Source: Leptospira sp.
GTDB taxonomy: Bacteria; Spirochaetota; Leptospiria; Leptospirales; Leptospiraceae
NCBI GenBank assembly: GCA_034439575.1
Contig: JAWXAQ010000013.1
Coordinates: forward strand, 1-18,632
Direction: 5' to 3'
DNA length: 18,632 nucleotides
Numbering within the stretch: the first letter of the stretch is position 1; every line of letters starts with the position of its first letter. Position numbers and translations under genes: made by a program. Below, in pieces: positions 931 through 17,800 of this stretch. The notes under the pieces were generated by a model, which was given only the letters and a program-made list of their open reading frames with translations, had not been told where the DNA came from and searched no databases.

Positions 931-2751
931 ATGGATCTAAACTCTCTTAAATTACAATATCGGATTGCCTTTGATAAAGAAGATTTTGAATCTATTTCAG
1001 AAATAGTATCAATATTAAATCACGAGAAGTCCGAAAACAAGGATTTGTCACTTGAGTTTTACCGTCAAATTGAGGAGGAAATATTTCAAAGTGGTAGGAG
1101 CATTCGCAATTTAAATTCGAAAGCTTTCGAAGATTCAATAAAAAATGCAATATCCATTGGGAAAACTCAATCCAAGAAACAAAAAACTATAAAACCGATA
1201 ATAAGTCCAGAGCCAAAAGAAATTAAATATTTTCTCGAGTTTTATAATCGACATCAAACTATATTAGAACTCTTGAATGATTTTTTTCTCATCAAATTGT
1301 CGAATATTGAAATATTGGAACGACCAAAAGTCTTATTTTTATGTGACTCTGCTAGTTTACATTTACCATTAATTAAAGAGCTTATGCAAAATGAAGAAAT
1401 TCATGATAATTTAAAATGTATTAAACATGCGATCGAAGATGTATCTACGCTTTTCCCAAACAAGAAAGCAATTGATAATTATCTTTGTCTATTAATCATA
1501 ACTCCGAACTTAAACACTAATATTGAATGGAAGGGATATATTGAACAATTTTTAGGATATTTTGATGAAAAATTATTCATTACTATTAAAAGTCGCAATA
1601 ATCAAATCACATTAAAAGACTATAATGAAGAACCAATTACAGATAAAATAGTTTTAGACATCTTAAACAATATAAACAAAGTTTTTTACAACAAAGTAAT
1701 TACTAATGACCAACAACGTCTGATCAAAAGTTTTTTTCAAAAAATGAGTGGATCGATTACATATCGATTACTAAACCCTGGGGCTAGCGGTGCTTCAGTA
1801 ATTGAAGTTCAAGGTACCTCTATTTATGGCGGTAGCATGAAAAGATACGTTGTCAAGATAGCCCAAAAAACCAATGCTCAAATAAGCAAATTGAGCTCAG
1901 AAATAGATAAGTTTAAAGAATTTGTAAAACATTATTCAACGATTAAAACTACTTATAGTGCAGATTACCATGAAAATGAAACCTTAGAAGCAATTTTTTA
2001 TAATTATGCTTCTGCCGGTAGCCTAACGGATGCATTGCCATTTGCTAATTTACTTACTGATATCTTAAGTAACAAAGGTCAAATCCTAAATGTAACTACT
2101 GCTTTATTGAATTGTGAACTTTTTAATGCCTGGAAAACCTCCTCCAATGAATTTGAAACCTATGGCAATCTTTATCGAGATTATATAAAAAATGAGAAAA
2201 AAATAAGGGAAGCTGTAGCTGAGATTGATGATAAGGAAGTAATCCTTCCCAATCTATTTAATTTTTATGACCATGTGATAAAATTAAAAACAGATATTAA
2301 AAAGAAAATATGCCATGGAGATCTACATACGGATAACTTTTTCTATGATGGAAACTTTGTTACATTGATAGATTTTGGCTTTACTGGTAATCATCATGCA
2401 ATCATTGACCATGTATTCCTAGAAGCCTCAATTAGGTTTAAACATTTTCCAAAATATATTCCTATTTCCGAATTAATTGATTATGAAAATAAATTTTCTG
2501 ATATCAAAAGTTTTAAGGACGATTTTAATTTAGATTTCATCAAGCGACCAAATCTAAAGATCTATTACGAAATTATATCCCTTATTCGCAAGGATTCATT
2601 AAAATATCTCGTAAATCAAAATGAACCTACTGAATATCTTTTATCTCTTTTCTTGATATCTTTTAGACAAATTCAATATCCAGACTTAAATCAAATTTAT
2701 GCACTTAGATTTTCGGATGCTTTATCGAAAATAATTAAATTAAGCACTTAA
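931..2751 (+). CDS. APH/phosphotransferase-like kinase (TCAD9-like) with a long N-terminal extension, 606 aa
   Basis: Gly loop PGASGASV, VVK lysine, catalytic HGDLHTDN and IDFG. Starts 8 bp after the ATPase stop. Confidence 0.75.
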   Translation: MDLNSLKLQYRIAFDKEDFESISEIVSILNHEKSENKDLSLEFYRQIEEEIFQSGRSIRNLNSKAFEDSIKNAISIGKTQSKKQKTIKPIISPEPKEIKYFLEFYNRHQTILELLNDFFLIKLSNIEILERPKVLFLCDSASLHLPLIKELMQNEEIHDNLKCIKHAIEDVSTLFPNKKAIDNYLCLLIITPNLNTNIEWKGYIEQFLGYFDEKLFITIKSRNNQITLKDYNEEPITDKIVLDILNNINKVFYNKVITNDQQRLIKSFFQKMSGSITYRLLNPGASGASVIEVQGTSIYGGSMKRYVVKIAQKTNAQISKLSSEIDKFKEFVKHYSTIKTTYSADYHENETLEAIFYNYASAGSLTDALPFANLLTDILSNKGQILNVTTALLNCELFNAWKTSSNEFETYGNLYRDYIKNEKKIREAVAEIDDKEVILPNLFNFYDHVIKLKTDIKKKICHGDLHTDNFFYDGNFVTLIDFGFTGNHHAIIDHVFLEASIRFKHFPKYIPISELIDYENKFSDIKSFKDDFNLDFIKRPNLKIYYEIISLIRKDSLKYLVNQNEPTEYLLSLFLISFRQIQYPDLNQIYALRFSDALSKIIKLST

Positions 2752-2766
2752 AGTATGAGAATTACG

Positions 2767-3118
2767 GGCATTATGCAGAACCTTTCGCAAAATCAAAATT
2801 AGACTCTCTCAGGCGAATAGCAATTGGCTTTCAAAATTTAATTTATCTAATTTGCTTACGTCAAGATATTTTTTATTTCCCCATTGAGAACTAGCTATAT
2901 GCCTTAATCTTGCTGTAGCGAACATTAGAGCAGGCTCTACATCTGGGAATGATCCAATTGTCAGAGACAACTAATTTGACACCTGTTAATCCAAATGCCT
3001 TAGAAATCCATACCATACTTCCTTATCTTCCTTGGCACCATCCATTGATCCTGAAACCTCTTTATTTCCCTGAATGCTTTGAGTTTCTTTTTTTATCTCC
3101 AGATAAATGCAAACTTTT
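2767..3118 (-). mobile_element. IS256-family relic with internal deletions and a retained right end
   Basis: Minus-strand fragments read FREI (3063-3074), DGAKEDKEVWYGFLRHL (2992-3042), GLTGVKLVVSD (2960-2992) and GSFPDVEPALMFATARLRHIASSQWGNKKYLD...FA* (2809-2955), matching the Mutator/IS256 transposase core and C-terminus. GGCATTATGCAGAACCTTTCGCAAAA (2767-2792) resembles an IS256-type terminal repeat. Confidence 0.8.
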
Positions 3119-3135
3119 ATTATGCGATGTGGATG

Positions 3136-4815
3136 TTATATTATTTTCCATGTTATGATAGCTAATTTTGCTAAATATTTTTGCCTATTATCGATAGACT
3201 CTTTATTCCATTCGCTATTGCTGATTAGCGAATTAGTTAATTTGAATGATGATAGTTGATAAATACTTTTTTTCTTTCCGAATGAATCATCTTTTATACC
3301 AGAATTACTTTTTTTCTTCAATAAGCAAAGATTTCCCATTCGTCGGAAGTAGAATTGATGATCACCCTCAGTAAAATAATTCCAATTTGGACTTAGTTTT
3401 TGCGGTAGGATATGTTCAAGTGTAATTTGTTCTGAATTATCGTTTATAATAAATTCTGGTTCTTTTTCATCTATTAATGTTTTCTCTAACGATCTTAACA
3501 AATATCGTGCGACCTCGGGTTTATTTGAGGAATAAGCAGCAAATGATTTTTCAAATTCCTCATCTGTAGGAATAATTTTTTTCATTTCATCTAACAATGA
3601 ATCTGCAGTTTTAATTTTCTTATCATTTATTAATTTTGCCTTTTCAGAGAAGTTAATTTCTAGTCCTGAACTTCCTAATCTTCCGCTAATTATAAATCTT
3701 ATAGTCCACGATAATAATCTCTTTATAGTTTTTTCTAATTCATGTTTCTCAAAATTTTGTAATATAGATAAAAGCAAAGGCCTGTTCTGTTGCATTCCAA
3801 GCATTTTTAAAATCGATATTGCACTTTTGGTTTCTAAATTATACTTTTCCCAAACCTCATGATCTGTATTTAATAAAGCAGTATAATAATAAGAAGCAAA
3901 AACTAAATTTTCTGATTGTTGAAGTGCTTCTGTACTGTTAGAAATATTATTCTTAATTTTTGAAAATAACTCTCTTTGTCGTGTTAATCCTTCTTGTGTT
4001 GACCAGTAATGGCGAATAAAATCGACGAGCAAATTTTCTTTATCTATTGCTTCAAGAGAAGAAGTCATTTCAATCCAATTTGATTGAACAGATTTTATTT
4101 TCTTTCCGGATTTCGAAAATAAAAGGTTTTTTAATAAATCTGATACAGTGAGAACTAGTCCGCGATCATTAAGAGTCTCAAAAATTGTATAAGCATATGA
4201 ATAATCTTCGACTTGAATCCAAATTACTTTTACATTTTCCTTTATGAAGTTTATCCATTTTGCAAATTGTTCATTTTTTTCCTTATTTCCTATAATTTCT
4301 TTTTTTATAAACTTAATAGCAAGTTTATAAGCCAATAAAAGTTTCTCATGTGATTCTTTATTGAAACTAGAAGAATTTTTTTTATTTCTCGAAACAATAT
4401 GATCGCTATAGAATATATTGTCTTCTGTGTTTAATTGTAGATTTTGAATTAATTCTAGGGATTCTATATCTTTTGAAAAAAGATAATCCTTTTCAATAAT
4501 GTCAGCCCTTTCCGTATCTCCAATATCGATAAGTATATCTCTAAATGCAGTCAGTAAAATGGAAGTTGTAGCAATTCTTTGCTGGCCATCTACTATTTCG
4601 CTATAGCCATCTTCAGTTTTTAATACTACTATGGAACCTAAGAAATAATCTTCATTTTTATGTGAAACTGATTCATTGATATCCTCAAATAAATCATTAA
4701 TTTGTTTTTCTTCCCATGAGTAGGATCTTTGGAATGGAGGTACTGAAAGCTTTCCTTCGGATAATACCTTTCCGATTCCCTTAATATCAATTTGAGACTT
4801 ATCTATTTTATTCAT
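3136..4815 (-). CDS. gmrSD: DUF262-DUF1524 fused GmrSD-type (type IV, modification-dependent) restriction endonuclease; SspE has the same architecture
   Basis: Motifs VPPFQRSYSW, IVDGQQR and IFETLNDRG (DUF262), and LEHILPQ...GNLCLL....N (HNH, DUF1524). Confidence 0.9.
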   Translation of the reverse strand: MNKIDKSQIDIKGIGKVLSEGKLSVPPFQRSYSWEEKQINDLFEDINESVSHKNEDYFLGSIVVLKTEDGYSEIVDGQQRIATTSILLTAFRDILIDIGDTERADIIEKDYLFSKDIESLELIQNLQLNTEDNIFYSDHIVSRNKKNSSSFNKESHEKLLLAYKLAIKFIKKEIIGNKEKNEQFAKWINFIKENVKVIWIQVEDYSYAYTIFETLNDRGLVLTVSDLLKNLLFSKSGKKIKSVQSNWIEMTSSLEAIDKENLLVDFIRHYWSTQEGLTRQRELFSKIKNNISNSTEALQQSENLVFASYYYTALLNTDHEVWEKYNLETKSAISILKMLGMQQNRPLLLSILQNFEKHELEKTIKRLLSWTIRFIISGRLGSSGLEINFSEKAKLINDKKIKTADSLLDEMKKIIPTDEEFEKSFAAYSSNKPEVARYLLRSLEKTLIDEKEPEFIINDNSEQITLEHILPQKLSPNWNYFTEGDHQFYFRRMGNLCLLKKKSNSGIKDDSFGKKKSIYQLSSFKLTNSLISNSEWNKESIDNRQKYLAKLAIITWKII

Positions 4816-4838
4816 ACAAAGTTTTTTTCAACAATTTC

Positions 4839-5001
4839 GTATAACGAACTAGTCTTACCGAAAGTTTCCTGACCCAGAGTCCCGAATAGGACGTGATTGA
4901 CTAGCACGTAGCCTGCGTATGCAAGCGAGTGACAGAAGAGGACTGTGGCGTAGCACGAGCGCGGGCTTGTGCCGAATCGTAGAGTTAAGTCGCTCTTATG
5001 C
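4839..5001 (-). repeat. Long attC-like site (163 bp)
   Basis: GC-rich island in AT-rich DNA between two co-oriented genes. Minus strand: R''-like GCATAAG, 5 bp, CTTAAC ... GTAAG, then R'-like GTTATAC. Internal hairpins GCTTGC-ATAC-GCAGGC and GTCCT-ATTC-GGGAC. The next ATG is about 30 bp after the GTT. Confidence 0.7.
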
Positions 5002-5029
5002 GTAGCATGCAAATTATAATGTTAAATGT

Positions 5030-6217
5030 TTAGTAGTTATCGAATTCAAAATCTTCAATTACTTCGGGTTGCTTATCATGAGAACTCCAGTTGAGTATGT
5101 CAAAACTGCCCTTAGAAAGTCGATAATTTGTCGCATTGGGGTTTAAATATATATAGGTTTTATATAGATTTTCCCCTTTTTGTATAACACTATTATCTAC
5201 TATGAAAACTATTCCACTAATTTTTTCAGATATTTCTTGCTGCGTAATAGGTACTTGGATACCCAATGCTGAACTAATATCATCCTTACAATTCTTAAAT
5301 TCTATGAAAATTCTTCGTGAAAATGCTCTATAAAATGTTTCAGTCAAGCTACTTCCAATCGCTTCGCGATTAAACCAAGGATTTATTACAAAAGTTAAAA
5401 GGCTAGGCTCGTCAATTAGTAGTTTATTATAATAATCTAACCCTTTGAATTTATTCTTTTGAGCTGCTTCATAAGGGTTAAATGTATCTTCAGTGATGAG
5501 ACTTACTATTTTGTTGCCATTTGGATACGCCATTCTGAATTTATATATATTTCCGCTTATTGTTGAGTAATTTAAAATAGCTTTATCGTCATTAATCGCC
5601 TCAACTAGGGCATCGATTAACTTTCTATTTTTTAATTCTACTTGTATATCTGATTTTACGGAAAGATAATTTCCTCCATTAAGGTGCTCTATTCCGATTA
5701 GAAAGTCTTTATTTGGTATTAGTTTTTCGACTTCTTCAATTATTCTATCTATTAGTTCGAAGTGAGTTGGAATGAATGACTTAACATCCATATATATTTT
5801 TTTAAATTTAAGGTTAAAAGAAAGATCTAAGTCTAGGGTTTCTTGCCCTATTTTTTTTGCTAAACTATTTGGCATTAGATTGACATCACCTTTTACAACA
5901 AACTTGAAATCATCCAAATCTTTGAAGCTTGTCCAGTAATCCAATGCAACGAGTTCAGAATATGGCCCAGACCATTTATATCCTTTTTTGTTACCAATAT
6001 CTTTTACCGTATTTTTTAGTTCTTGGTAGTCTCCAGGTATGGATTGGAATTTACTTTTTAATCGAATCAGTCGATTTATAAAATTCGTATTAAATTCGGT
6101 ATACTGAGAATTATTCAGAGCGCCGATACAATTATTTGTTAAGTTTAAGTTCTGATAATGAACTTCCTCTTCAAAAATTTCTTTGTAAATTCTTTTAAAA
6201 TTTTCTAAATCACTCAT
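5030..6217 (-). CDS. Hypothetical protein, possible PD-(D/E)xK nuclease fold (395 aa from MSDLE)
   Basis: The ATG at 6217 has an AGGA RBS, while the 6259 start overlaps the cassette end repeat. Motif order is YSELVALDY ... LDLDLSF ... YMDVKS (DVK at 5780-5788). Confidence 0.55.
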   Translation of the reverse strand: MSDLENFKRIYKEIFEEEVHYQNLNLTNNCIGALNNSQYTEFNTNFINRLIRLKSKFQSIPGDYQELKNTVKDIGNKKGYKWSGPYSELVALDYWTSFKDLDDFKFVVKGDVNLMPNSLAKKIGQETLDLDLSFNLKFKKIYMDVKSFIPTHFELIDRIIEEVEKLIPNKDFLIGIEHLNGGNYLSVKSDIQVELKNRKLIDALVEAINDDKAILNYSTISGNIYKFRMAYPNGNKIVSLITEDTFNPYEAAQKNKFKGLDYYNKLLIDEPSLLTFVINPWFNREAIGSSLTETFYRAFSRRIFIEFKNCKDDISSALGIQVPITQQEISEKISGIVFIVDNSVIQKGENLYKTYIYLNPNATNYRLSKGSFDILNWSSHDKQPEVIEDFEFDNY

Positions 6218-6545
6218 TTTGTTTATCCTATATTTATTTAAATTTTGCATATTACACATAAAGGATTAGGCAAGACGACGTTTTACCTAAGCGTCTCTGC
6301 AGAAGTTATTATGTAACAAATGCTCGGCGAAAATAGGGTTCGATTCTGCGAATAATGTAACCAATGTAAGAAACTACCGAGAGACATATTCTGATCGTTC
6401 GAAATAGCATTTGTCAGACTAAAGCCAATAATCGTCCGCCGAACTTTTATCCAGAAATCCAAATCAGAATAAAAGTTTGATCCCTTGAATGCAAACCACT
6501 TTCTTAACCCGTCCGCAGAATTTCCGACGTATCCAGGAAGCAATT

Positions 6546-6765
6546 TCGTATAACGAATTTCGCTCATTATTCGTATAACATCTCTAGTTTTAACATATGA
6601 ACGCAATACATTTTTAACACCTGCTAGATGTTTTTTAATCTTTCAAGATCTGTTTTATGTCTCAATTTTCGAATACTTTCACATTTGAAATCTCAAATTG
6701 CTTTTGAATACCTCTTCTTTTGACGCAATATGGCACTTCCCATAATCAACATTATGTCGCATAAC
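6546..6765 (-). repeat. Cassette leader copy 1 (attI-like GTTA boxes plus dif-like site)
   Basis: TAAC boxes end at 6554, 6579, 6594 and 6618. A 40-bp block at 6600-6639 is 39/40 identical to 8238-8277, and 6658-6675 is 17/18 identical to 8297-8314. GCACTTCCCATAAT is shared with copy 2. Confidence 0.75.
6735..6762 (+). other. XerC/D dif-like site
   Basis: ACTTCCCATAA-TCAACA-TTATGTCGCAT has the 11-6-11 layout; compare B. subtilis dif ACTTCCTAGAA-TATATA-TTATGTAAACT. Confidence 0.6.
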
Positions 6766-6923
6766 AAACAGTATGCGATTGTATGGAAAGGCACATCGGT
6801 AACTCTTTGAACAAGTCACAGGGGTTACAGATTTATTCGTCTATTATATGCAAGAGCTTTTGATATTTCAAGACTTTACTTGTATATAAATCTAAAATAC
6901 CAATGATTGCGGTCGCAAAGTAT

Positions 6924-7004
6924 ATCTAACAGCTCAGCCTGCAGCGCAGGCGTTAGTCCCGAGCGTAGTGTGTGCCGAAGCATTGCATTGAATCGCAGTT
7001 ATGC
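6924..7004 (-). repeat. attC-like site (81 bp)
   Basis: Minus strand GCATAAC ... GTTAGAT (canonical GTTRRRY), about 20 bp after the stop of the 7024 gene. GC-rich, and shares TTCGGCACA, CGCTCG and TCGGGACT with the 4839-5001 site. Confidence 0.75.
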
Positions 7005-7023
7005 GACATTGAATTCTATAATT

Positions 7024-8157
7024 TCATTTTTTTGGTGCAAATCGAATCAGAATATTTTTAATTCCCGATCCATCTTTCACATTTAAATCTATATCTTTAC
7101 CAATTTGATTATTTATAAGTTCGTTATATGTGATCCAAGCTTCACCGATAAGATCATCATTTTCTATATCTTTATCAATTACGCCGAATTGAAGTAAGTC
7201 TCCTTCATTTAGTGTATAATTTTTTTCGAGATTAAACGTTGGGTCTAAAATGTCTTGAATTTTATCAGAGGTAAAAAATAGTTCACCATTTAAAAATATT
7301 TTTAGAAATGGATCTGGTTTTCCTCCTAGTGCATCCCATGCCTTATCTACTCTGGGTTTTAAATTTGAAATTTTCACTTTTATATATTTAATTCGATATT
7401 CTTCGCCTGTTTTAAATTTTGCACTTTGGAAGTTAATGGGCATTGATTGAAAAGGAGTTAAAACTTCATATTCAATGAAAATAGGTACTTCCTTTTGTGA
7501 AACATTAAAATGATTTTTAACTTCAAATGGATTTGTTATTATATTTGGCGAATTATTGACGCTGCTTAATCCAATGAGTTTAATTTGATTTTCAAGCTTG
7601 AATTCTCCTAAGGTATAATTGATATCAGCATTCGGCAGTATGTTCGATAGAGACATTAGTTTCAATCTAGCTTCGCTATTGAAATCAGATTGCGTTCCGC
7701 TTATAATGTAATGAATAGACCAACCATAATATATTCTTTTTAGAAAGAGTTTTGCGTTGGGATTTGCGACTCCGCTAGAGTGATAGGATACTGTTTTTGA
7801 AATGTGGTAAACAGAAAGAACTGCAAATCTCTTTTCCTCTGCTATCCTTGTCTCCCCGCTTAGAATCCCGAGAAAATTTGCATTGGCAGACAGTGAAAAA
7901 TTATTTTCTAAAATATTTAGCTCGGAAATGTATCTTTCTTCAGTAGTGGTTTCTATTTCTCCGGATTCAAATGCACTGATATTCTGCATTTTTAAATCTT
8001 CCTTAAAAGAGTTTCCTAATTGCTTCTGGCTTACTCCAACAGGTGCAGGAATTTTTATTAAGTCATGTTTTTGGTAATTTCCATATTTTTCAATACTCTG
8101 CTGGGCGCTTATAATCGTCGTAATAAAGATAATAATTGTTAAAAATTTGATATTCAT
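7024..8157 (-). CDS. Secreted protein with a C-terminal C2 domain and a possible MACPF/CDC-like N-terminal domain (377 aa from MNIKF)
   Basis: AAGGA RBS before the ATG at 8157. Signal peptide MNIKFLTIIIFITTIISA. C2 motifs WDALGGKPDPFLKI, QDILDPTFN and VIDKDIENDDLIG with Ca2+-type aspartates. The N-domain assignment is tentative. Confidence 0.7.
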   Translation of the reverse strand: MNIKFLTIIIFITTIISAQQSIEKYGNYQKHDLIKIPAPVGVSQKQLGNSFKEDLKMQNISAFESGEIETTTEERYISELNILENNFSLSANANFLGILSGETRIAEEKRFAVLSVYHISKTVSYHSSGVANPNAKLFLKRIYYGWSIHYIISGTQSDFNSEARLKLMSLSNILPNADINYTLGEFKLENQIKLIGLSSVNNSPNIITNPFEVKNHFNVSQKEVPIFIEYEVLTPFQSMPINFQSAKFKTGEEYRIKYIKVKISNLKPRVDKAWDALGGKPDPFLKIFLNGELFFTSDKIQDILDPTFNLEKNYTLNEGDLLQFGVIDKDIENDDLIGEAWITYNELINNQIGKDIDLNVKDGSGIKNILIRFAPKK

Positions 8158-8183
8158 CTTTTCCTTATAGATATTATTCAATG

Positions 8184-8404
8184 TCGTATAACAAAATTCT
8201 TCCGTGATTCGTATAACATATCTAGGATTAACTTATAAACGCAATACTTTTTTAACACCTGCTAGATGTTTTTTAATACTTACATGGCCAGTAATTTGTC
8301 TCAATTCTCGAATAACATTAGATTATGTAACGATCTTTGTTTGAAGTGGATTATTACTTGAATCAGCATAGTGCACTTCCCATAATGTGTCATCTTCGTA
8401 TAAC
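8184..8404 (-). repeat. Cassette leader copy 2 (attI-like GTTA boxes plus degenerate dif-like site)
   Basis: TAAC boxes end at 8192, 8217, 8232 and 8256, with the same 25/15/24 spacing as copy 1. ACTTCCCATAA arm at 8375-8385; the second arm is degenerate and ends in TCGTATAAC. Confidence 0.75.
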
Positions 8405-8420
8405 TTATTTTCTATAAAAT

Positions 8421-8843
8421 TTATAAACAATCCACAAAAGTATCAGCCTCTTCTTTATGGGAAGAATATATACGAATCGAAGAAGTCATTTCGTTACTAA
8501 AACTTAATGTAGATTTATCACATTGAATCGAAGTCGTTTTTTGTAATATGGATGTGAAATTACAATAAAAACTCTGTTTACCATCAATATAAACAATTGC
8601 TCTATCTTTATCAGGTAACCAAAGACTCATATCTTTGAATGAATCTCTTCCAGAATAGATCTTATATAGTATATTCTTATATATAATTTCAATTAAGTAT
8701 TCATTTGTATTTTCCTGCGTATCCTTGGATTTTATGACTGGAATACCATTTGATGGGAAGCCAACTAATGCTACTGTTAAAAATACGAATGAAGTATCAG
8801 AATTCCATTTTAATTTCTTTATTATGTCGCAATTCGTTTTCAA
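8421..8843 (-). CDS. Hypothetical protein, start uncertain, possibly 5'-decayed
   Basis: 140-aa ORF in AT-rich DNA with a TTG start and no clear RBS or motif. Confidence 0.4.
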   Translation of the reverse strand: MKTNCDIIKKLKWNSDTSFVFLTVALVGFPSNGIPVIKSKDTQENTNEYLIEIIYKNILYKIYSGRDSFKDMSLWLPDKDRAIVYIDGKQSFYCNFTSILQKTTSIQCDKSTLSFSNEMTSSIRIYSSHKEEADTFVDCL

Positions 8844-9047
8844 TTCCAGATTACTGGCGTTATAAGATCGACTTTACCTTACTAAATCAAAGTTAATGCT
8901 AAGCTAAATAAAATTTAATAAGTGTAACAACAGAATTTTTTTTCTTTAATCTTTATTCGAACCGACTTAAGTTTTACGACAAGGCCTGATCCAAATTTTT
9001 CTCTTTTCCGTAGTTATTGAATTGAAAACGCAGCATATATCCCCAAA

Positions 9048-10145
9048 ATGAATACTATGTGTATTAAGGTTCAATTCCTATTTCTTTTTATTCTCACTCT
9101 GATTAGTTGCACCTATCACCATTATCCAAATGTAAACGATTCGAATAATCTTTCGCATGACTCTCAAAATCTAAAGATAGGAGTGTCAATACTCAGAAAT
9201 TTTGATTCTAGATTCAATGAAAACGGGGAAACAGAGAAAATTAAGCTAATTGCCCAGGCCACCAAACAAGTAATTAGTTCTTTGAATGAGAAAAATGGAG
9301 CACAGAAGTATGAGTTTTTGGATACAATTGGTGACCAACCAGATTTTGATTATTCACAGGATTATAGAAATTATCTGAAGAAAAATCTTATCGAAATTCA
9401 ATATGAAAACTTATTAGGTAAAAAATCCAATTTTTTTGCTTTGGGAATATATTCGAGATCCATTTGGAATTTTAAAGTATCGGTTTATGATTCTGATGGC
9501 TTGAAAACAGAAATCAAGGAACTGAATTTAGAGCCGATTTCACAATTGGTCGGAATTTTTCTTTTCCCAATTTTATTTTACCAATCAAACGAAGACAGAG
9601 ATAGGTTAGCTGAGAAAAGATTAAATATAATAATTCGTCAGACCATAGAAATGGCTTTTTCACGTGGTATTAAATTTGAAAACTTTGATTCATCATACAA
9701 GATATCTAAGCTTCCATTTAGGATGAAAATAAATCGTGGAATTTGTGATTCCATCATTCCCACTGGACTAAATGCTCCAGGCATTCGCACAACCTGGACT
9801 CCAAATAATCTACATCGTGGATGTGATTTCGTAATCAATTTCTCAAATAAAACTGACAAAATAATTAATATCGACACTCAGCAATTTACTCTTGTTACAG
9901 ATAAAAACATTCATTCACCAAAGAAAGAAATCAACATCTTCCAGAGAAATATTTCTGGAAATGCTAGTTCAACAAATACATCTGTGCAGCATTTATTACA
10001 AAGTGTAAACCTCCAACCTAATACAACAGGCAATGAAAATATTGAATTATTCTTTGAATATCCCTTCAATGAAAAACCTTTATTCGTTAGATGGCAAGAT
10101 TCAAATCAGTCAACGTCTGTAGTGGAAGTTACAGTTCCTAGGTAA
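9048..10145 (+). CDS. Putative lipoprotein with a C-terminal DUF4352-like Ig-type domain
   Basis: Hydrophobic leader FLFLFILTLIS-C21. C-terminal pattern FVINFSNKTDK...FTLVTD...LQPN...ELFFEYP. Confidence 0.6.
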   Translation: MNTMCIKVQFLFLFILTLISCTYHHYPNVNDSNNLSHDSQNLKIGVSILRNFDSRFNENGETEKIKLIAQATKQVISSLNEKNGAQKYEFLDTIGDQPDFDYSQDYRNYLKKNLIEIQYENLLGKKSNFFALGIYSRSIWNFKVSVYDSDGLKTEIKELNLEPISQLVGIFLFPILFYQSNEDRDRLAEKRLNIIIRQTIEMAFSRGIKFENFDSSYKISKLPFRMKINRGICDSIIPTGLNAPGIRTTWTPNNLHRGCDFVINFSNKTDKIINIDTQQFTLVTDKNIHSPKKEINIFQRNISGNASSTNTSVQHLLQSVNLQPNTTGNENIELFFEYPFNEKPLFVRWQDSNQSTSVVEVTVPR

Positions 10146-10885: not shown

Positions 10886-11824
10886 TCAATACTTTTCTAG
10901 ATACTTTTTTTTCCTCCTCTCCGACCAACCTTCTCTTACTGCGATACGATCAATTTCAGTTATTGTCGCTAAAGGAATCGGAGCATATTTATATTCAATA
11001 CCATGTTCCTGTAAGAATTTTACAATTTGCATTTTATCTTTGTACTCGCTAGACTCCAATGGATATGTTTTAAAACGTAACTCTTCTACAAGAAATAAAG
11101 AAACTTTTTGTTCTCTTGGCTTGCCATAATTATTCCCGACACTTTCAGCTAGTTTACCCCGAAAATCAACTCCAGCATGCAGTAAATACAGGACAATATC
11201 AAGTTTATCATACAAGAGGTATGTACTCAATAAAAGGCTACCACCGAATTCATTTTTCATATGCATATCGCCACTACCTGAAAGCATAATCTTTAAATGC
11301 TCTAGAGAGTGAGCCTCAACCATTGCAGAAGGTGATTTCTCGGTTCCGTAATTCGGATCACCTCCTTTTTCCGCAACCATGCGCAAAATTCGTATTGTAC
11401 TTTTCGCGGCATTTTGCATGGGAGTTCGATGAGAAAACGGACTTTTGAAGTTAGGATTAGCACCAGATTCGAGGAGAATCCGAACTGCCTCTTCATTTTC
11501 CGTTCGAATGGAAAATATCAGCAATGAGTTCCCGAGATAAGGGTCGGGAGTATCCAACGCTGATTTGTATTTATCGCTCAATAATTTTACTTTAACGAAA
11601 TCATAAAAGAAGATTGCTTTTGCGAGTTCCCAAACAGGAGATTTTTGAAATACTCTGACATCATTTGCCGGAAAACGAAGCTTTTCCGGTGCTATTGGTT
11701 CATCTATTGCAGAACCATACCTTAATTTTAGATAATTTGATTTGATTGATACACAATTAGAAAAAAAAAGGAAAACAAAACAACTCATCATTACCTTTAT
11801 CCTGAATCGCCTATTAATAATCAT
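10886..11824 (-). CDS. Ankyrin-repeat lipoprotein, probable immunity protein of the upstream lipase toxin
   Basis: Ankyrin-type repeats GNSLLIFSI..ENEEAVRILLESGANPN, TPMQNAA...GGDPN and LDIVLYLLHAGVD. Leader FVFLFFSN-C24. Starts 3 bp after the toxin stop, with its AGGAG RBS inside the toxin 3' end. Confidence 0.8.
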   Translation of the reverse strand: MIINRRFRIKVMMSCFVFLFFSNCVSIKSNYLKLRYGSAIDEPIAPEKLRFPANDVRVFQKSPVWELAKAIFFYDFVKVKLLSDKYKSALDTPDPYLGNSLLIFSIRTENEEAVRILLESGANPNFKSPFSHRTPMQNAAKSTIRILRMVAEKGGDPNYGTEKSPSAMVEAHSLEHLKIMLSGSGDMHMKNEFGGSLLLSTYLLYDKLDIVLYLLHAGVDFRGKLAESVGNNYGKPREQKVSLFLVEELRFKTYPLESSEYKDKMQIVKFLQEHGIEYKYAPIPLATITEIDRIAVREGWSERRKKKYLEKY

Positions 11825-11827
11825 AAT

Positions 11828-14800
11828 CTATTCTCCTTGTTCCCGACTCGGTTTTGGTGGCAGGAAATTATAAATCGAGTGACCATTTAAAGTTCCTGTG
11901 ACACTCGGATAACTCTCAAAGTGTGGTCTACCGATATGTCCGATGATCGGTGCAAAGATATTATTTTGCATTAGATTTAATGGGTCAGTGTTTACCACAT
12001 AAGTATCAATTTGTCCTGATCCAGTCGAAAAAATGTTTGATAGACCATTCGTCATGAAATTTGTCCCAGCAGGATTAAATGTAATAGCAGGGATTCCTGT
12101 CTGCATAGAAACCATAGAAGCTAGTCCGCCACCGAGGGAATGACCAGTAGTTACCATAATTGCATCTGGATCATTTGCTTTCATATATTTTTCTATTTTC
12201 TTCATTCGCTCTAATGCTTCACTATGCTGACTTGATAAGCCTCCGACTGCTCCAAAATTTGCACCCCAATCGGTTCCATTCTCAGTTCCTCCAAAGGAAA
12301 TTGTATATACTACCTTCCCATCTCTCTCTGTCCTGAATACTTTCATGTCAAGTCCTGTTTCCTCTCCGATAATTTTTGGTCGTTGACTACTAACGGCTAA
12401 TCTCGGAATCTCTTCTGTTCCCACCGGAAGAGGTCCATTTGCCCAGTCACTATAAGACGCGTGTGCTAGCAAAGCGGCATCATCTCTTGATAAAATTTTA
12501 GGATCAACAGCAGGCGCTCCGGAGGCAATGTGACCAACCGATTTAAATGGCTTAGTTACATTCTTCCAAATTGATTCTGGGAACTCGCTGAAAGAATTCA
12601 TCATTTGATCTCTCGTGGTTTCGCTTCTAGTAAATAATCCCTCATTCCAAGAACGGTCTTTGATTAGATTATCTACCATTTTCACTGGGGAGATAATAGT
12701 ATCCAGACCAGTATCCAGAATCGCCAAACCTGATTGTAAGGTTGTGCTCAATAATGTTTTTCCTATACCAGCTACAGAACCTAATGTTTCCATTGCGACA
12801 GTTTTTATATTTGTCACAGCGTGACTAACGGTACCTAGTGATCCAAAGGCACCGATTGCTAATTTATTTAATCCAACACCCATACCTTGGAAAAGTTTTC
12901 CTGGTTGAATCAACGAACTTGGATTCCCTAAAACTTTTAGAGGTAAAGTTCCAACTTCTGTTCCAATTTTCAAGAGTCCAGTTGTCATATCTGCAACGTT
13001 TCCAATCGCATTACCAAAAAAGGGAACATAATCCTTTATTACTCCTACGTCGCGAATTGAATCACCTAATCGTAGAAATGCGCTTGAAACTCCATTAAAT
13101 GCCCGATCAAGACCTCCGGCCACTGTAGCAATTCCTCTTCCAGTTGCTGCAATTCCATGCCCTATTGGAGACAATACATTGTCATACAATTTGCCAGGTA
13201 ATTTACCAATTCCACCGACTATTGTATCGAAAGTGGAACGGGTCCCATTAACGATTCTATCTGCAAAACTTGGACTTTGTTCGACTGCTGGACGAGGGTC
13301 TGGAATCTTAATTTTTTCTCCACCATAAAAATAGCCTCCATCTTTATCACGGTTGAGGGCTTTCGGGTTGGCAGCCATCAATTCGTCTCTGGTGATTCCA
13401 TTTCTCTCTGCAATCGTTACAGCCCTTTCACCATTTTTCACCGTATAACTATCATTATGCACCCATACCCCTACTTCACCAACAAAGTAAGTATGGAAAT
13501 CTTCCACTTCAAAGTTATAAACTGTTTCTTCTCTATGATCAATAACAACGGAATCTACAACTAACAGAGTTCCATCAGCAACATAAGATCGATCACCTGA
13601 CTTAAGATCCTTCGCTTCTACCCATTCTGAGTTTTCTATTGCAAATTGTTCATTAGTTGCCGATGACTTCAGTCTTCTAAATGGGTGGTTCCAAGTTGTC
13701 TCTAGAATTGTGCCATCTGTGAATCGCACTATATAAATAGCATCCGTTTGGCGGATAAAGGTGTTTACGACTTTTTTATACTCAACGTCACCAGTCGTGT
13801 CAGACTTAGATAACACTACATCATCAACTTTGATCTCTTCAATGTTCTTTAGTCCATCTATGGTATGGATTTTTGTCCCTGCGGTAAAACAAGTGCGTGG
13901 GTGAACTTTTCCATCAGAATCAACAATCATATTTGCTGTGGAGACAGCCTTTCCATTATAGAAATTGAACATGTTTGCAACACCGTCTGTGAAACCACCA
14001 AAAAACTGACTAAACATGTTGGTTCTAGATGTTCCTAATCCTTTAGTTCCCATTGGTTGTGTGGACTCACTTGCTTCCTTTTTTCTTTTTTCCATCTCAG
14101 CATCAACATTATCTCGTGCTTGGTCTAAGTTCTGATCGACCCAATCAATTTCCCCAGCCGTAAATCCGTTAGGTCCATTCGAGCCAATACTATTTCCACC
14201 TACTCTTCCACTAGCTGTTGTTCCACTACGGTCTATACGATAACTTCCACCCACACCGTCCCGATTGAAAGACGCAGTTCCAGACATTCCATTCTGTGAA
14301 TCATAGTTAGCTGTTAAGGAAACACCATTCCCAACATTTAAAGTATAACCAACATCATAGTTACTTTTGTGAAGATTGTAATTAATAGTAGCATTACTTA
14401 CACCTGCACTTATGCGTGTATCACCTCTTTGGCTAAAATTGACACTCGCGTTTCCAGAGCTGCCGCCTATTCCAATGGCTCCACCCCATTTATTTTTGCT
14501 ATCGTAACTAACTCCAATTCCAAGACCTGTATTCTGAAGAAACGATGCAGCTGGACCGAGCATTGCATTTGCGTCAAACGTTCCCGCAGTTAATACACCA
14601 ATGGCTCCATTCACAAAACCTGCAGCCATTCCATCAATTCCGTTCCGAGAACCGTCAATTACTTGCACTGCTCCTTTCACAACTGCGGCGCCGACTTGAA
14701 CAGCTGTTGTTCCAGTGACTCCAACAAAATTACCAACAGCTTTGAGTGCGTTTGCGACTACAGACATCGGTCCAGTAACAACCGCAGCTGCACCAAGAGT

Positions 14801-17800
14801 TACCACTGTAGTCACCGCCGTGATGGCCGTTGATCTTATAGCGTCAGCTTGTTGTTTCTTATCAGCTTTTCTTTGCTCCATCGCGCTATAACCTTTACGC
14901 AATGCTGCATTAATTATTTCTTTCTCTTCCTTCGTTCTCCCCTGTGCCAAAAAATCAACTGTCATTCTTTGACCAAGTTCCTGAACTAACCCTTCTTTGT
15001 TTTTCAACGTAGGAGTTGCACTAGTATAAGTCGTCCCAGGTGCCTTCAAGCCAAGTCTAGTATTGGCATTTGCCTCTGACTGAATTTCTGCCCAGCTAGT
15101 TTCTAAATTTCCAGAGAACATTACTCTATTGCCATCTTTGATTGCGCGTTGGATATCTCTGTCTTTTAATCCAAAGGCATTTGCCGCTGTTTTAATAATG
15201 CCACCGCCAATTCCATCGATTTGAGCAGAAATCGCAGTAATCGGATTCCCATTAATAGCACGACGGATTTTTTTAGCTGCGAGTGATCCTTTATAATCCG
15301 TAATCATATTCCCGATCACTTCTGCGGGTAAACCAGTAGAGGTGGCGACAGCTTGAGTCACATTGGATTGGATCATAGATTCAGTATTGGCTTTGATTGC
15401 GGCTATTGTATCTTTCGGACCTGTAACTCGATTCATGGTTGCTTCATAGGCTTTCGGTCCCATAGCAGTGCGAGCTAAAGCAGCCGTTAAACTATTCGAT
15501 AGCTGGTTTAAAGTTCCAAGGCCTGGTATTTGTGAAATTACTGAATTAGTAAATGTATTATATTTAGCGGCGATATTTTCGATAGAGCGAATTGGATTGT
15601 TAATAGAAAGAGTATTGGATCTTGTCTTGATATTTCTTTCTTGCATTTTTCCTTTCATGAAACTTACAGCTTGCGCAAGCATCGCAATCTGGTCTTCATC
15701 AGCTCCACTCGCACGCGCCCAGGCTTCGGCAATACCTGTGTTGATTTGATCTTCTATCTTGTTTTTGATCGCTCCATTAACACCAGCCATACCGCCAGTT
15801 ATGTATGCTAGGATTAAGTCTTTGATTAGAGAATCCTGTGCCTGTTGAGCTTGTTTAGCAGCTTGGAATCGATTGTTGTTATTCGATTCAACCGTAGATA
15901 TCGATGTCACAGCTCCTATTAATAAATTCGAATCTGATGTGAGTCCTTTAGTATAAAAATTGTTCATCACATTGCTTGCTTGTGCTGAAAAATCATTCCA
16001 ATCAGAATCTCCCCAAACATCAAATAAATCTTTACCATTAGGCGCAGTGACAGGTGCCACCATAGATAAAGTTACATATCGTTTTTCTTCCTGAGTTCCG
16101 CTGATATACTTTCCAGAAGAATCCCGACCACCAATTCGACCATTGCTGATATTTTTAGTGAGTGTCACTTGTAAGGTTTCTTTATTGAATGAAGAAATAT
16201 AATCCTGTCTTAGTTCACTGCATGATGTTGGATTCACATAACACGAACCAGACAATCTCTTTTCTGCATCAGTCAAAGTATTTTCTTTTATCAAGCCTAG
16301 CTTAATCATGGTATTTCGATCAGTAAATGATTTTACGATCATACCATCTTGGTATTCATAGCCTCTGCGTTTTAATTCATCATTAACTTGTTCTAATGAG
16401 ATATTATACTTTGCTGTTGCGTTTTTATCTTTTTGTAAAACGGCGAGATATCCTTTTAAATATTCTTCACCTATAAAGTTTCCTTCCTTATCATATTGCC
16501 CAACGGCTCTATCTTCCCAGCGAATCCCATAAGACATCTGGTTGATTAGTTTTTCTTGTTCTCTTATTGCCGCATTCGCATTGTTTTCGTTTGTCGATAG
16601 CAACTGCGAATACTGGTAAACTCCATTCGCAGTAGTCTGGAATACACTTGCCAAATCTTTATCTTTGATAGAAAGCGAAGTCTCTACTTTTTTGTCAGCT
16701 GCGGCACTAAATATATTATAACTTCGCGTGGTCTCTGTAACTGTCTCAGCTTTACTAATGCCAAGTTTATCTGCCACACCAGATAACATAAAAGAATCTG
16801 AATTCACAAAATTTTTAGCTGTTGTTAAAAATCCATTATCCTTTGTAGTCATCCCAGCTGAGGACAAGTATTGGTATGGACCAACAGCCGCTTGGTTCGT
16901 AGATACATCAGTAAATGTAAACTCGCGCGACGTCAGATCATTATAAGAATTATCATAATTTGCTAATACAGTATTTGTTCCTGTAGAAAAATCCGACACT
17001 CCAATGCTTTGAACACTGGCTTGGAAATTTGTTTTTACAGCACTTAGATTTCCATTGGCGCTAGATTGGTTGATTTGATTTTCTAGCCCTTGCCATTTAG
17101 CCACCCCATCCTGATATTCCTGTCCAATTTTATTTAACCATGTCTGTTTCTTAGTTTCTAAATCTGATAAGGAATTTTCATAATCTAGTCTTGCTTGGTC
17201 TCTTAGAGTCTGAGCCTGCGTTTGCCATGCTGTATAAAAATTATTATAATTTTGAACTTGTGACTCCCAGTTACTTATCGCTGGGTTGATATTTGTATTG
17301 TATTGGTTCAACTGGTTGCTAAGCGAACCTAAGTTACCTGACCAGTAGCTCGCATGATCGGCCATGCCTTGGTCACGCATAGTATATGCTATACCATACG
17401 TTATATGATCCATCTGAAATCGATCCGTCCAAGCGGCGCAAGCAGCAGGTGCAGGATAGCAAATTGCTCGATTTGCTTCCCAAGTAAATGCACCATTATT
17501 TTCTAATAAATAATTGCCCCGAGTATGAGTTTTACTTATATAAGCAAATTGATCTGTTTTATTTAATTCTTGTAAATCAGCTGTGAACACATTAGAAGCG
17601 ATAATATTAACGATGGATCTACCAGATGTTCCGCCTAATCGTCCTTGAAGTGTGTTGTATATAGTTGTATAATCCCCAGTTCTTATAGCTCGAACCATAT
17701 TTCCGATATCTGGATCTACAATATGCTCTCCACCACGATATTGACTGCCAGTGTTAATTGTATTCCAGTCATCATAAGTTCCATTTACTGTATTCGAGAT

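Follow-up and report, generated by a model that had tools for sequence, protein, structure and literature searches.

A probable relic cassette array of an integron-like system on a Leptospira contig

The described systems closest to the region considered here, a row of genes and attC-like repeats at positions 3119–8404 of a contig from Leptospira sp., are the sedentary chromosomal integrons, such as the Vibrio cholerae superintegron with attC sites of the V. cholerae repeat (VCR) type, the 'inverted' integrons of Treponema, the clusters of attC sites lacking integron integrases (CALIN), the pdif modules and integrative mobile elements exploiting Xer (IMEX) of Acinetobacter, and the XerA recombinases of archaea and candidate phyla radiation (CPR) bacteria. 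The window, that is, the whole stretch of DNA analysed, is contig JAWXAQ010000013.1 (18,632 nucleotides; contig C13, 18.6 kb) of assembly GCA_034439575.1, a genome (G000) of 4.1 Mb in 37 contigs with about 36% G+C that belongs to a saprophyte genus denoted g1. Positions are given in window numbering, and the sub-arrays are read on the minus strand. The region 3119–8404 was read as a small, decayed (relic) cassette array of an integron-like system native to Leptospiraceae, with a probability of about 0.7 for this reading as a whole.

Like the sedentary chromosomal integrons, the Leptospira system has short cassettes, most without a promoter, in long arrays on a single strand, near-uniform and species-specific R''/L''/L'/R' sites with GTTA../..TAAC ends and a G|TT crossover indicated by permutation, a cargo of toxin–antitoxin genes, small enzymes and proteins of unknown function and, in two genera, a tyrosine recombinase at the array head. 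It differs from them in that the recombinase falls below the TIGR02249 cut-off and has no IntI-specific insertion, that the sites are 170–205 nt long and multi-branched, that the g1 recombinase is found 1.8 Mb from the array, and that the window contains no recombinase. With the Treponema integrons, whose integrases are classed as true IntI, it shares a spirochaete host and an integrase co-directional with the cassettes. Transcription of the Treponema integrase in the cassette direction is described in the covered parts of PMC4889954. Treponema was the only spirochaete clade with integrons in the 2013 study, according to the covered parts of PMC3607928; the Leptospira system would therefore be separate and unreported there.

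The window resembles a CALIN in that 4 kb contain two to three attC-like sites, the cassettes share one orientation and an integrase is absent, and is unlike one in that its sites are longer and built differently from canonical attC and that two attI-like leaders are present, which are not required of a CALIN. Small modules by Xer sites, a dif accompanied by a degenerate direct partner and a box resembling a Xer arm recall the Acinetobacter pdif modules and IMEX; unlike these, no module of the window lies between two complete XerC/XerD sites, the ends are R'/R'' ends of the attC type, and the spacing is off by 1–2 nt. XerA resolves chromosome dimers at dif. The array recombinase is like XerA in that its best model is recomb_XerA_Arch and XerA structures are among its closest PDB entries, and unlike it in being tied to a cassette array and in carrying an N-terminal extension of about 70 residues.

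No description of Leptospira integrons or attC arrays was found in the literature searched, supplementary tables not being covered. Spirochaetes and Treponema are mentioned in PMC4889954, the covered parts of which do not name Leptospira; the covered parts of PMC9024848 name neither Spirochaetes nor Leptospira, and those of PMC12032809 and PMC3789691 touch on integrons only in passing. The integron-like system is real, family-wide and apparently undescribed.

Repeat arrays and their recombinase in Leptospiraceae

An earlier note on this DNA, made from the sequence alone, had proposed gene cassettes bounded by attC-like hairpins and served by an integrase. Both of these ideas were borne out in the family, where the integrase is a dedicated one. 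BLAST with positions 4790–5040 gave matches in 39 of 41 genomes of genus g1, and a covariance model (R1), built from 132 array copies of two relatives (G005 and G007) together with the window copy and yielding E-values that are rough, picked up the repeat (E ≤ 1e-10) in 94 of the 114 Leptospiraceae genomes. Copies stand on one strand in both relatives, 70 over 83 kb in G005 (2,252,793–2,336,091) and at least 86 over at least 124 kb in G007 (2,286,655–2,410,650), at a spacing of 0.5–3.4 kb. Across the complete genomes the arrays contain 33 to at least 86 cassettes; the four that were mapped end to end (G005, G007, G091 and G100) have 70–86 sites over about 85–125 kb.

The family consensus was taken from alignment A3 (132 copies and the window copy). 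In the array-forward direction, which corresponds to the window minus strand, it reads ..CGNNTAAC-AGC-GACTTACCG...CGGTAAGTC-TAGTTC-GTTANNCG.. through R'', L'', L' and R', and has the R'' (RYYYAAC) and R' (GTTRRRY) ends and the inner L''/L' stem by which an attC site is recognized. The sites are about 170–205 nt long with a conserved multi-branched interior, which is atypical against the simple variable loop of classical attC. RNAalifold returned 42 consensus pairs, and compensatory changes occur in 19 of these. Paired cells amounted to 99.1%, against 85.7% in shuffles and 21–46% with slid partners, double-change cells to 670 against 233 in the control, and the covariation score to 0.316 against 0.088, a value reached by none of 500 shuffles. 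The outer and L stems were 97–99% paired, with a compensatory change in five of the six L-stem pairs. G–U pairs were nearly absent, which is more in keeping with a fold made in DNA than with one made in RNA.

Pairing between cassette ends was measured in G005 and G007. The 6 nt before the TAAC of a repeat paired at a mean of 5.06 of 6 positions with the 6 nt after the GTTA of the upstream repeat, and at 3.64 of 6 with the repeat's own R'. Both of the two variable bases paired with the upstream repeat in 144 of 179 cases and with the same repeat in 69 of 179 (36% in shuffles), and rare variants fitted perfectly, as in TGCAAT|TAAC with GTTA|ATTGCA. If circles are joined at G|TT, the start of a cassette is expected to complement its own 3' site and not the neighbouring site, and this was what was seen. 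The array units are circularly permuted cassettes around a G|TTA crossover, which is the integron signature. Ten cassette open reading frames (ORFs) were sampled in G005, of which six had a Pfam match (including glyoxalase, DUF1801, DUF4262, an ATPase fragment and a HigB/HTH pair) and four had no family, a cargo typical of chromosomal integrons. The same array (loci L060–L064) also contains a cassette of about 510 bp, with the ends GTTAATTGCAATGTCC.../...TGCAATTAAC and a shorter site variant, that recurs about ten times.

A strongly conserved, covarying branched structure just downstream of genes, with local copies of about 50% G+C in a background of 26–31% G+C, is also what would be expected if the elements were structured non-coding RNAs, or transcription or stability elements resembling repetitive extragenic palindromic (REP) sequences, and the cassette look a by-product. 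This explanation leaves the pairing of R'' with the upstream R' (144 against 69 of 179) unaccounted for, which recombination at G|TTA predicts, and it does not suit the near-absence of G–U pairs or the finding that the arrays adjoin and co-occur with a tyrosine recombinase. An Rfam scan of 2500–9500 moreover gave no match at E ≤ 1 except a small RNA at chance level (E 0.67) away from the elements; Rfam includes no attC model. An RNA or REP-like role was accordingly considered extremely improbable, and the elements are treated below as cassette recombination sites.

The array recombinase is a tyrosine recombinase of 345–376 aa with Phage_integrase and Phage_int_SAM_4 domains. It scored 179–193 bits with the integron-integrase model TIGR02249 (integrase_gron, cut-off 265), and its best NCBIfam model was recomb_XerA_Arch with 202–204 bits (cut-off 220). 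The best solved relative was V. cholerae IntI4 (2A3V, 1.2e-34), followed by the XerA structures 5HXY and 4A8E. The IntI-specific insertion is missing, because residues 172–231 of IntI4 (60 residues) align to only 20 residues of the Leptospira enzyme, and the N-terminus is extended by about 70 residues. The nearest relatives outside Leptospira, at about 40% identity, belong to Woesearchaeota, Nanoarchaeota and Patescibacteria; co-oriented repeats were present within 3 kb at 16 of 76 loci of non-Leptospira relatives. No protein passed the integron-integrase cut-off in the window's own genome (best 84 against 265 bits) or in any of four complete relatives, and by this measure neither the array-linked enzyme nor any protein of the window or of its genome is an integron integrase.

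In the sister genera g21 and g22 the recombinase gene stands at the array head in the orientation of the cassette strand. It was located on contig C2 of G091 at 393,971–394,954, about 0.8 kb from the head of an array with 84 hits at 299,358–393,163, on contig C2 of G100 at 305,184–305,984, about 0.7 kb from the head of an array with 85 hits at 220,180–304,486, and on contig C2 of G094 at 199,070–199,897, about 8 kb from the first strong repeat of an array of 33 hits beginning at 207,979. The attI site of G091 and G100 lies 60–300 nt after the integrase stop, and direct TTATACG boxes are present at attI in G091 and G094. Counted by eye, 16 of 17 positions of the G100 attI, ..GTCAGA|GTTAGGCGTAATTGATG, can pair with the first cassette's R'', and in G091, where the direct boxes are GTTTATACGAC and CTAGTTTGAGTTATACGCC, 15 of 16 positions are complementary to the first cassette end. 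At E ≤ 1e-45 the recombinase was found in 93 of 114 Leptospiraceae genomes. Within g21, the 14 genomes with the gene have 7 to at least 23 repeats and the eight without it have 0–6.

A recombinase was also sought beside the array heads of G005 and G007; the idea was rejected, the upstream gene being a family-B DNA polymerase and no neighbour a recombinase. These two heads (L060:9020-11683 in G005 and L066:3102-5399 in G007) share the sequence CAATGGGAsTsAGGGGGCGAAGCTATGCCTA and a half-site, TTATGTCaCAT, that resembles a dif arm.

The earlier note had the window's cassettes loaded by an integrase acting in trans on capture platforms. Three Xer-like recombinases were found in the window's own genome and no array recombinase; the best matches to the latter were Xer paralogues of 30–34% identity, and this genome is the only one of 41 in its genus without the gene. 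Only eight repeats were detected in it, scattered over five contigs, and contig C5, where the genome has its homologue of polB, the gene before the G005 and G007 array heads, has no repeat. The genome lost, or never had, the recombinase, and the array is taken for a fossil instead of an active platform. Within the window itself, the reported absence of an integrase gene stood: Pfam found none among the ten largest ORFs, and tblastn with four array integrases gave nothing significant (best E 0.038, outside the leaders).

Cassette units and leaders of the window

From 3119 to 8843 every sizeable ORF lies on the minus strand, by the ORF list and Pfam, and the co-orientation described earlier is real. 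In minus-strand order the region comprises a dif-like site (site B, 8404->8375, an R'-like box and then a XerC-type arm), leader B (8374->8179), a cassette with a C2-domain gene, a short attC-like repeat (hairpin 2), a remnant of an IS481-family insertion sequence (IS), a dif site, 62 bp of native dif flank, leader A, ORF107 with a mini hairpin, a cassette for a 409-aa protein with a full site (hairpin 1), and a GmrSD gene. Both GC-rich elements that had been taken for attC-like hairpins, at 4839–5001 and 6924–7004, exist and proved to be members of the repeat family by R1, in decayed or truncated form. Their identity was drawn from family membership in relatives, since neither shows itself as an attC-like hairpin when folded alone.

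The full-length repeat, hairpin 1 (4826–5011, minus strand), scored 131.4 bits with R1 (E 6.4e-38) and contains many non-canonical pairs; its R'' is CGCATAAG, in which TAAC is mutated to TAAG, and its R' is GTTATACGAAATTG at 4845->4832. Hairpin 2 (6898–7014, minus strand; 16.7 bits, E 5.4e-4) has its 5' part in common with hairpin 1 and 85 model positions replaced by 17 nt, with R'' GTCGCATAAC at 7007->6998 and R' GTTAGAT at 6930->6924. To these was added a mini attC-like hairpin at 6243–6322 on the same strand (12.0 bits, a weak E of 0.013), absent from the earlier note, with R'' ACATAATAAC, the stem TGCAGAGACG/CGTCTTGCC and R' TTTATGTG, the last of which opens the cassette of the 409-aa protein. 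After the GmrSD gene there is a truncated R''-like end (..CATCGCATAAT) at 3119–3135, minus strand (7.3 bits, E 0.33 for 3088–3135); no stem-loop follows it, and the array therefore ends here. All window sites are thus damaged to some degree, by decay or truncation. Counted with R1 instead of the IntegronFinder model, the window has at least two attC sites close together and no integron integrase near by, as a CALIN does.

Four units were distinguished, all on the minus strand. Cassette 1 carries the C2-domain gene (7024–8157; Pfam C2 7.2e-9), whose product of about 377 aa from the ATG at 8157 has a signal-peptide-like N-terminus and is a putative lipoprotein. ORF107 (6283–6606), of 107 codons, starts within leader A and is a doubtful gene in a unit that is not a cleanly bounded cassette. 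Cassette 3 encodes the 409-aa protein (5030–6259), which has no assigned family, and cassette 4 a GmrSD-type protein of 559 aa (3136–4815; type IV restriction, DUF262/DUF1524; Pfam GmrSD_N 6.9e-37, GmrSD_C 9.7e-26). Clean cassette ends were found in two of the four. The C2-domain cassette begins at the second box of leader B, G|TTATACGACATTGAATAATAT (8192); its start and the R'' of its site, ATAGAATTCAATGTCGCATAAC, show 19 of 22 complementary positions. For the 409-aa cassette, a by-eye alignment of its start, TTATGTGTAATATGCAAA, with the repeat's R'' end (4995–5016) gave about 15 complementary positions of 18.

The leaders had been described as a duplicated stretch of about 220 bp with GTTA boxes at one end and a dif-like site at the other. 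The duplication and the boxes stand, over a shorter length: leader core A (6541–6675) and leader core B (8179–8314), both minus strand, are 82% identical over 136 nt, the roughly 60 nt between core and dif-like end are unalike, and about 14–16 nt (GCACTTCCCATAAT) are again common at the dif end. On the minus strand, a pair of direct GTTATACGA boxes with a spacing of 25 nt closes each core, at 6579->6571 and 6554->6546 in A and at 8217->8209 and 8192->8184 in B; R1 scored the A boxes with 11.7 bits (E 0.016, 6535–6582) and the B boxes with 10.8 bits (E 0.031, 8173–8220). The motif GTTATRCGA occurs 308 times in the genome, against about 80 expected by a hand estimate from base composition, and eight times in the 18.6-kb window. 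The combination CTAG, 3–5 nt and GTTATRCG is common to leader box 1 and the G091 attI, and every array repeat carries it at its 3' end.

Two outcomes had been named that would speak against a capture role, namely that leader homologues always precede the same gene and that the cargo switch misses the G|TT boxes. Neither was observed. Different genes follow the two leader copies, and the similarity of A and B stops at the second GTTATACGA box, exactly where the end complementarity of the C2-domain cassette starts. BLAST with the leader gave no homologue in 24 genomes of the genus that were examined, so that the comparison of what follows it is one between the two copies in this organism. The attI-like character claimed for the leaders is supported by leader B, whose last GTTA box is the start of a cassette with 19 of 22 complementary end positions; that the leaders act as attI-type insertion points is a tentative assignment, put at somewhat less than an even chance. 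The cores were also considered as what is left of an integrase 3' end with an attI behind it. This was rejected, tblastn overlaps covering only 14–18 residues (E 2.8–9.8), and blastn-short against three attI regions matched the box alone.

The duplicated leaders could also be remnants of a duplicated gene start or promoter beside which cassettes lie by accident. One frame of the core reads IKKHLAGVK.VLR.. in both copies and runs on as ORF107 in A, the ORF107 unit has no cassette-type ends, and no homologue of the core was found beside any integrase. In copy B, however, a stop interrupts the frame and a start codon is missing, and ORF107 has no Pfam match; the end of the A/B similarity at the very box where the complementarity of the C2-domain cassette begins, and the shared CTAG-box arrangement of leader, array repeats and G091 attI, also speak against this origin. 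A gene-start origin was on this balance judged unlikely.

For the integron-like reading, the following mechanism is proposed from the relatives. A cassette would consist of a promoterless gene and a site of about 170–205 nt, whose ends (R'' ..CGNNTAAC and R' GTTANNCG..) and inner L''/L' stem would pair on one folded DNA strand. A dedicated tyrosine recombinase, related to XerA and IntI and without the IntI-specific insertion, would cut at G|TTA, excise cassettes as circles and insert them at an attI with direct boxes of the TTATACG type. In the window, leader B would head one cassette, the C2-domain gene with its shortened attC, and leader A would head ORF107 with the mini attC, the 409-aa gene with the full attC and GmrSD with the truncated attC.

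Several observations weigh against reading the region as part of this system. In the window, folding compared with shuffles was not significant for either hairpin alone (z = -0.29/+0.18 for 4832–5008 and -1.22/-1.82 for 6918–7012, on the two strands), and the R1 scores of hairpin 2 and the mini hairpin are weak (E 5e-4 and 0.013). The ORF107 and GmrSD units lack clean end complementarity: the ends of the former agree at only 10 of 22 positions, and the start of the latter, at GTTATACGAAATTG (4845), is complementary to the R''-like end 3135->3119 at 13 of 22. A search of the G005 and G007 arrays brought up no homologue of any of the five window proteins. The leader core was found in 0 of 113 other Leptospiraceae genomes and showed no BLAST similarity, beyond the box itself, to the attI regions of G005, G007, G091, G094 and G100; because the core is unique to this organism, the attI role rests on position and box architecture in two copies. 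In the family, three g22 genomes (G109, G110 and G119) have 17 to at least 23 repeats and no recombinase match at E ≤ 1e-45, some g1 genomes have an intact gene and few repeats (one in G022, five in G046, six in G006), and five of eight g23 genomes have a homologue of about 40% identity and no R1 match. The g1 recombinase lies near nadB (about 445 kb, a conserved position), some 1.8 Mb from the array. Finally, the co-occurrence counts come from related genomes and overstate independence.

With clean ends in two of four units, damage to all sites and no enzyme available, a fossil is the best reading of the array, whose four units are the putative C2 lipoprotein gene, ORF107, the 409-aa gene and GmrSD. 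Its cassettes are probably frozen today and persist as accessory genes, whether expressed or silent.

The dif site, the IS481 remnant and the Xer system

A complete dif site of 11-6-11 layout, ACTTCCCATAA-TCAACA-TTATGTCGCAT, is located at 6738–6765 on the plus strand. The arms ACTTCCCATAA and TTATGTCGCAT recur across the genus with varied 6-bp spacers and occur about once per replicon in complete relatives, near mid-replicon: at 1.77 of 3.71 Mb (contig C1), 137 of 264 kb (C2) and 14.7 of 66 kb (C3) in G007, and at 1.76 of 3.60 Mb on C1 of G005. Two further dif sites were found in the window's own genome, on contig C22, with the canonical TGTATA spacer, and on contig C16. The segment 6676–6737, on the XerC-arm side, is native dif flank, forming part of an 88-nt match of 94% (6676–6763) to the canonical dif flank on C22; a longer match covers 154 nt at 87%, the C22 flanks are homologous to 6676–6830, and the flank is kept beside dif in other replicons. 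Judged by its arms and by the replicon positions in relatives, its own contig being only 18.6 kb long, the site is a genuine replicon dif.

The earlier note had seen a dif-like site at each leader end. The one at 6738–6765 is complete; the other, site B (8375–8404, plus strand), has a perfect XerC-type arm, ACTTCCCATAA, and a degenerate second arm that is an R' box (GTTATACGAAG) on the minus strand. A count on the sequence makes it a base short of the dif length. The distance from each leader to a XerC-type arm is about 60 nt.

The 144 bp at 6779–6922 appeared in a first alignment to be conserved dif flank, which was ruled out; by homology to full copies beside dif they are the 3' end of an IS481-family element on the minus strand, cut off at 6922 where hairpin 2 begins. 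The 157 bp to the right of the dif site thus count as IS481 remnant and do not belong to the leader. A full copy (L010:1601-2779) contains an ORF of 392 aa with rve, rve_3 and LZ_Tnp_IS481 domains. Full copies directly adjoin the XerD-type arm of dif in several replicons and species, and about 15 further copies without dif were found in G009. This placement hints that the IS481-family element targets the neighbourhood of dif.

The Xer system was also considered as the driver of the whole arrangement. The units would then resemble pdif modules or IMEX, moved or stacked by XerC/XerD at dif, as had been suggested, and the GTTATRCGA boxes would be Xer half-sites, so that this genome could do without a dedicated integrase. 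A genuine dif is accompanied at 1.6 kb by a second site in direct orientation with a perfect XerC-type arm, the R' box plus 4 nt (GTTATGCGACAT) equals, when reverse-complemented, the outer dif arm with AAC added, TTATGCGACAT read in the other direction agrees with the arm TTATGTCGCAT in 8 of 11 bases, chromosome II of G007 likewise has a dif and a partial site (XerC arm and R'-like box) 6.7 kb apart, and the genome keeps three Xer-like recombinases. Only one of the sites, however, is a complete 11-6-11 site. The spacing departs from that of dif by 1 nt in site B and by 2 nt in the G007 partial site, and the inverted repeats flanking the C2-domain gene are R'/R'' cassette ends without a second arm, not 28-bp Xer sites. 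Compared by eye, the arms give no pair of complete XerC-spacer-XerD sites in the window, such as bounds a pdif module or IMEX. The order observed, with the IS481 remnant between hairpin 2 and dif, does not fit a simple IMEX insertion for site B and dif, and the large arrays built of these repeats are 0.5 Mb away from dif and go with a dedicated recombinase. Mobilization or stacking by host Xer is not supported, and such an origin of the units was rated very unlikely.

Equally doubtful is the idea that the leaders are working capture platforms on which host XerC/XerD, or a Xer-like paralogue, replaces the missing integrase and inserts, excises or stacks cassettes at sites composed of a XerC arm and an R' box, the latter being a copy of the outer arm of the host dif. 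If Xer did stand in, integron and dif would form a true hybrid at this locus, a living intermediate linking Xer recombination with that of integrons. The paired sites on G007 chromosome II (L032, positions 10147 and 16829), of which one is a complete dif and the other a XerC-arm/R'-like-box site in direct orientation, could mark an integrated element.

On the minus strand the outer dif arm, G|TTATGCGACATAA, is identical over 12 nt to a common R' box, which suggests that the Xer/dif system gave rise to, or still overlaps with, the cassette recombinase and its sites; an enzyme on the border of XerA and IntI would be in keeping with this. The same identity may be the cause of recombination products gathering at dif.

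Neighbouring genes and meaning for Leptospiraceae

Upstream of site B, an ORF of 140 aa (8421–8843, minus strand) has no attC of its own. Pfam gave no match for it, for 5030–6259 or for 6283–6606, and no homologue of the 409-aa protein was detected in the G005 and G007 arrays or elsewhere in its own genome. A tRNA search found none. A promoter and terminator scan returned 28 sites against 30.9 in shuffles, without excess, the best minus-strand match (6871->6843) lying inside the IS remnant.

Upstream of the array, at 2–2751 on the plus strand, are a fragment of an SMC_N-like ATPase and a 606-aa protein with TCAD9 and kinase-like APH domains. They are parts of a ternary conflict (defence) system, which gives the contig the look of a defence island. 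The stretch 2780–3110, which separates the TCAD9 gene from the end of the array, contains only short, broken ORFs and appears non-coding; by eye it may include a transposase pseudogene fragment. On the other side, an ankyrin-repeat protein is encoded at 10886–11824, and a minus-strand ORF of more than 2267 aa occupies 11828–18631 and leaves the contig end, with a G+C content of 38–46% against 26–31% in the cassette region. A public metagenome contig (L174, 62.7 kb) is 100% identical to window positions 6212–9813 over 3602 nt and comes from the same organism, so that a longer context of the locus is available.

The window itself is modest, a fossil of four units with one GmrSD anti-phage nuclease beside a replicon dif, and its ordinary function would be that of frozen accessory genes. 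The family system is of high interest, with integron-like arrays and a recombinase without the segment held to be a hallmark of integron integrases. If this is true, the arrays would represent a large unexplored accessory gene pool for Leptospira genomics and would account for many contig breaks in draft assemblies. As saprophytic Leptospira can be grown and manipulated, they would also offer a tractable test of the need for the IntI-specific domain in the use of folded single-stranded sites, and the identity of the R' box with the host dif arm would bear on the evolution of integron sites from Xer sites.

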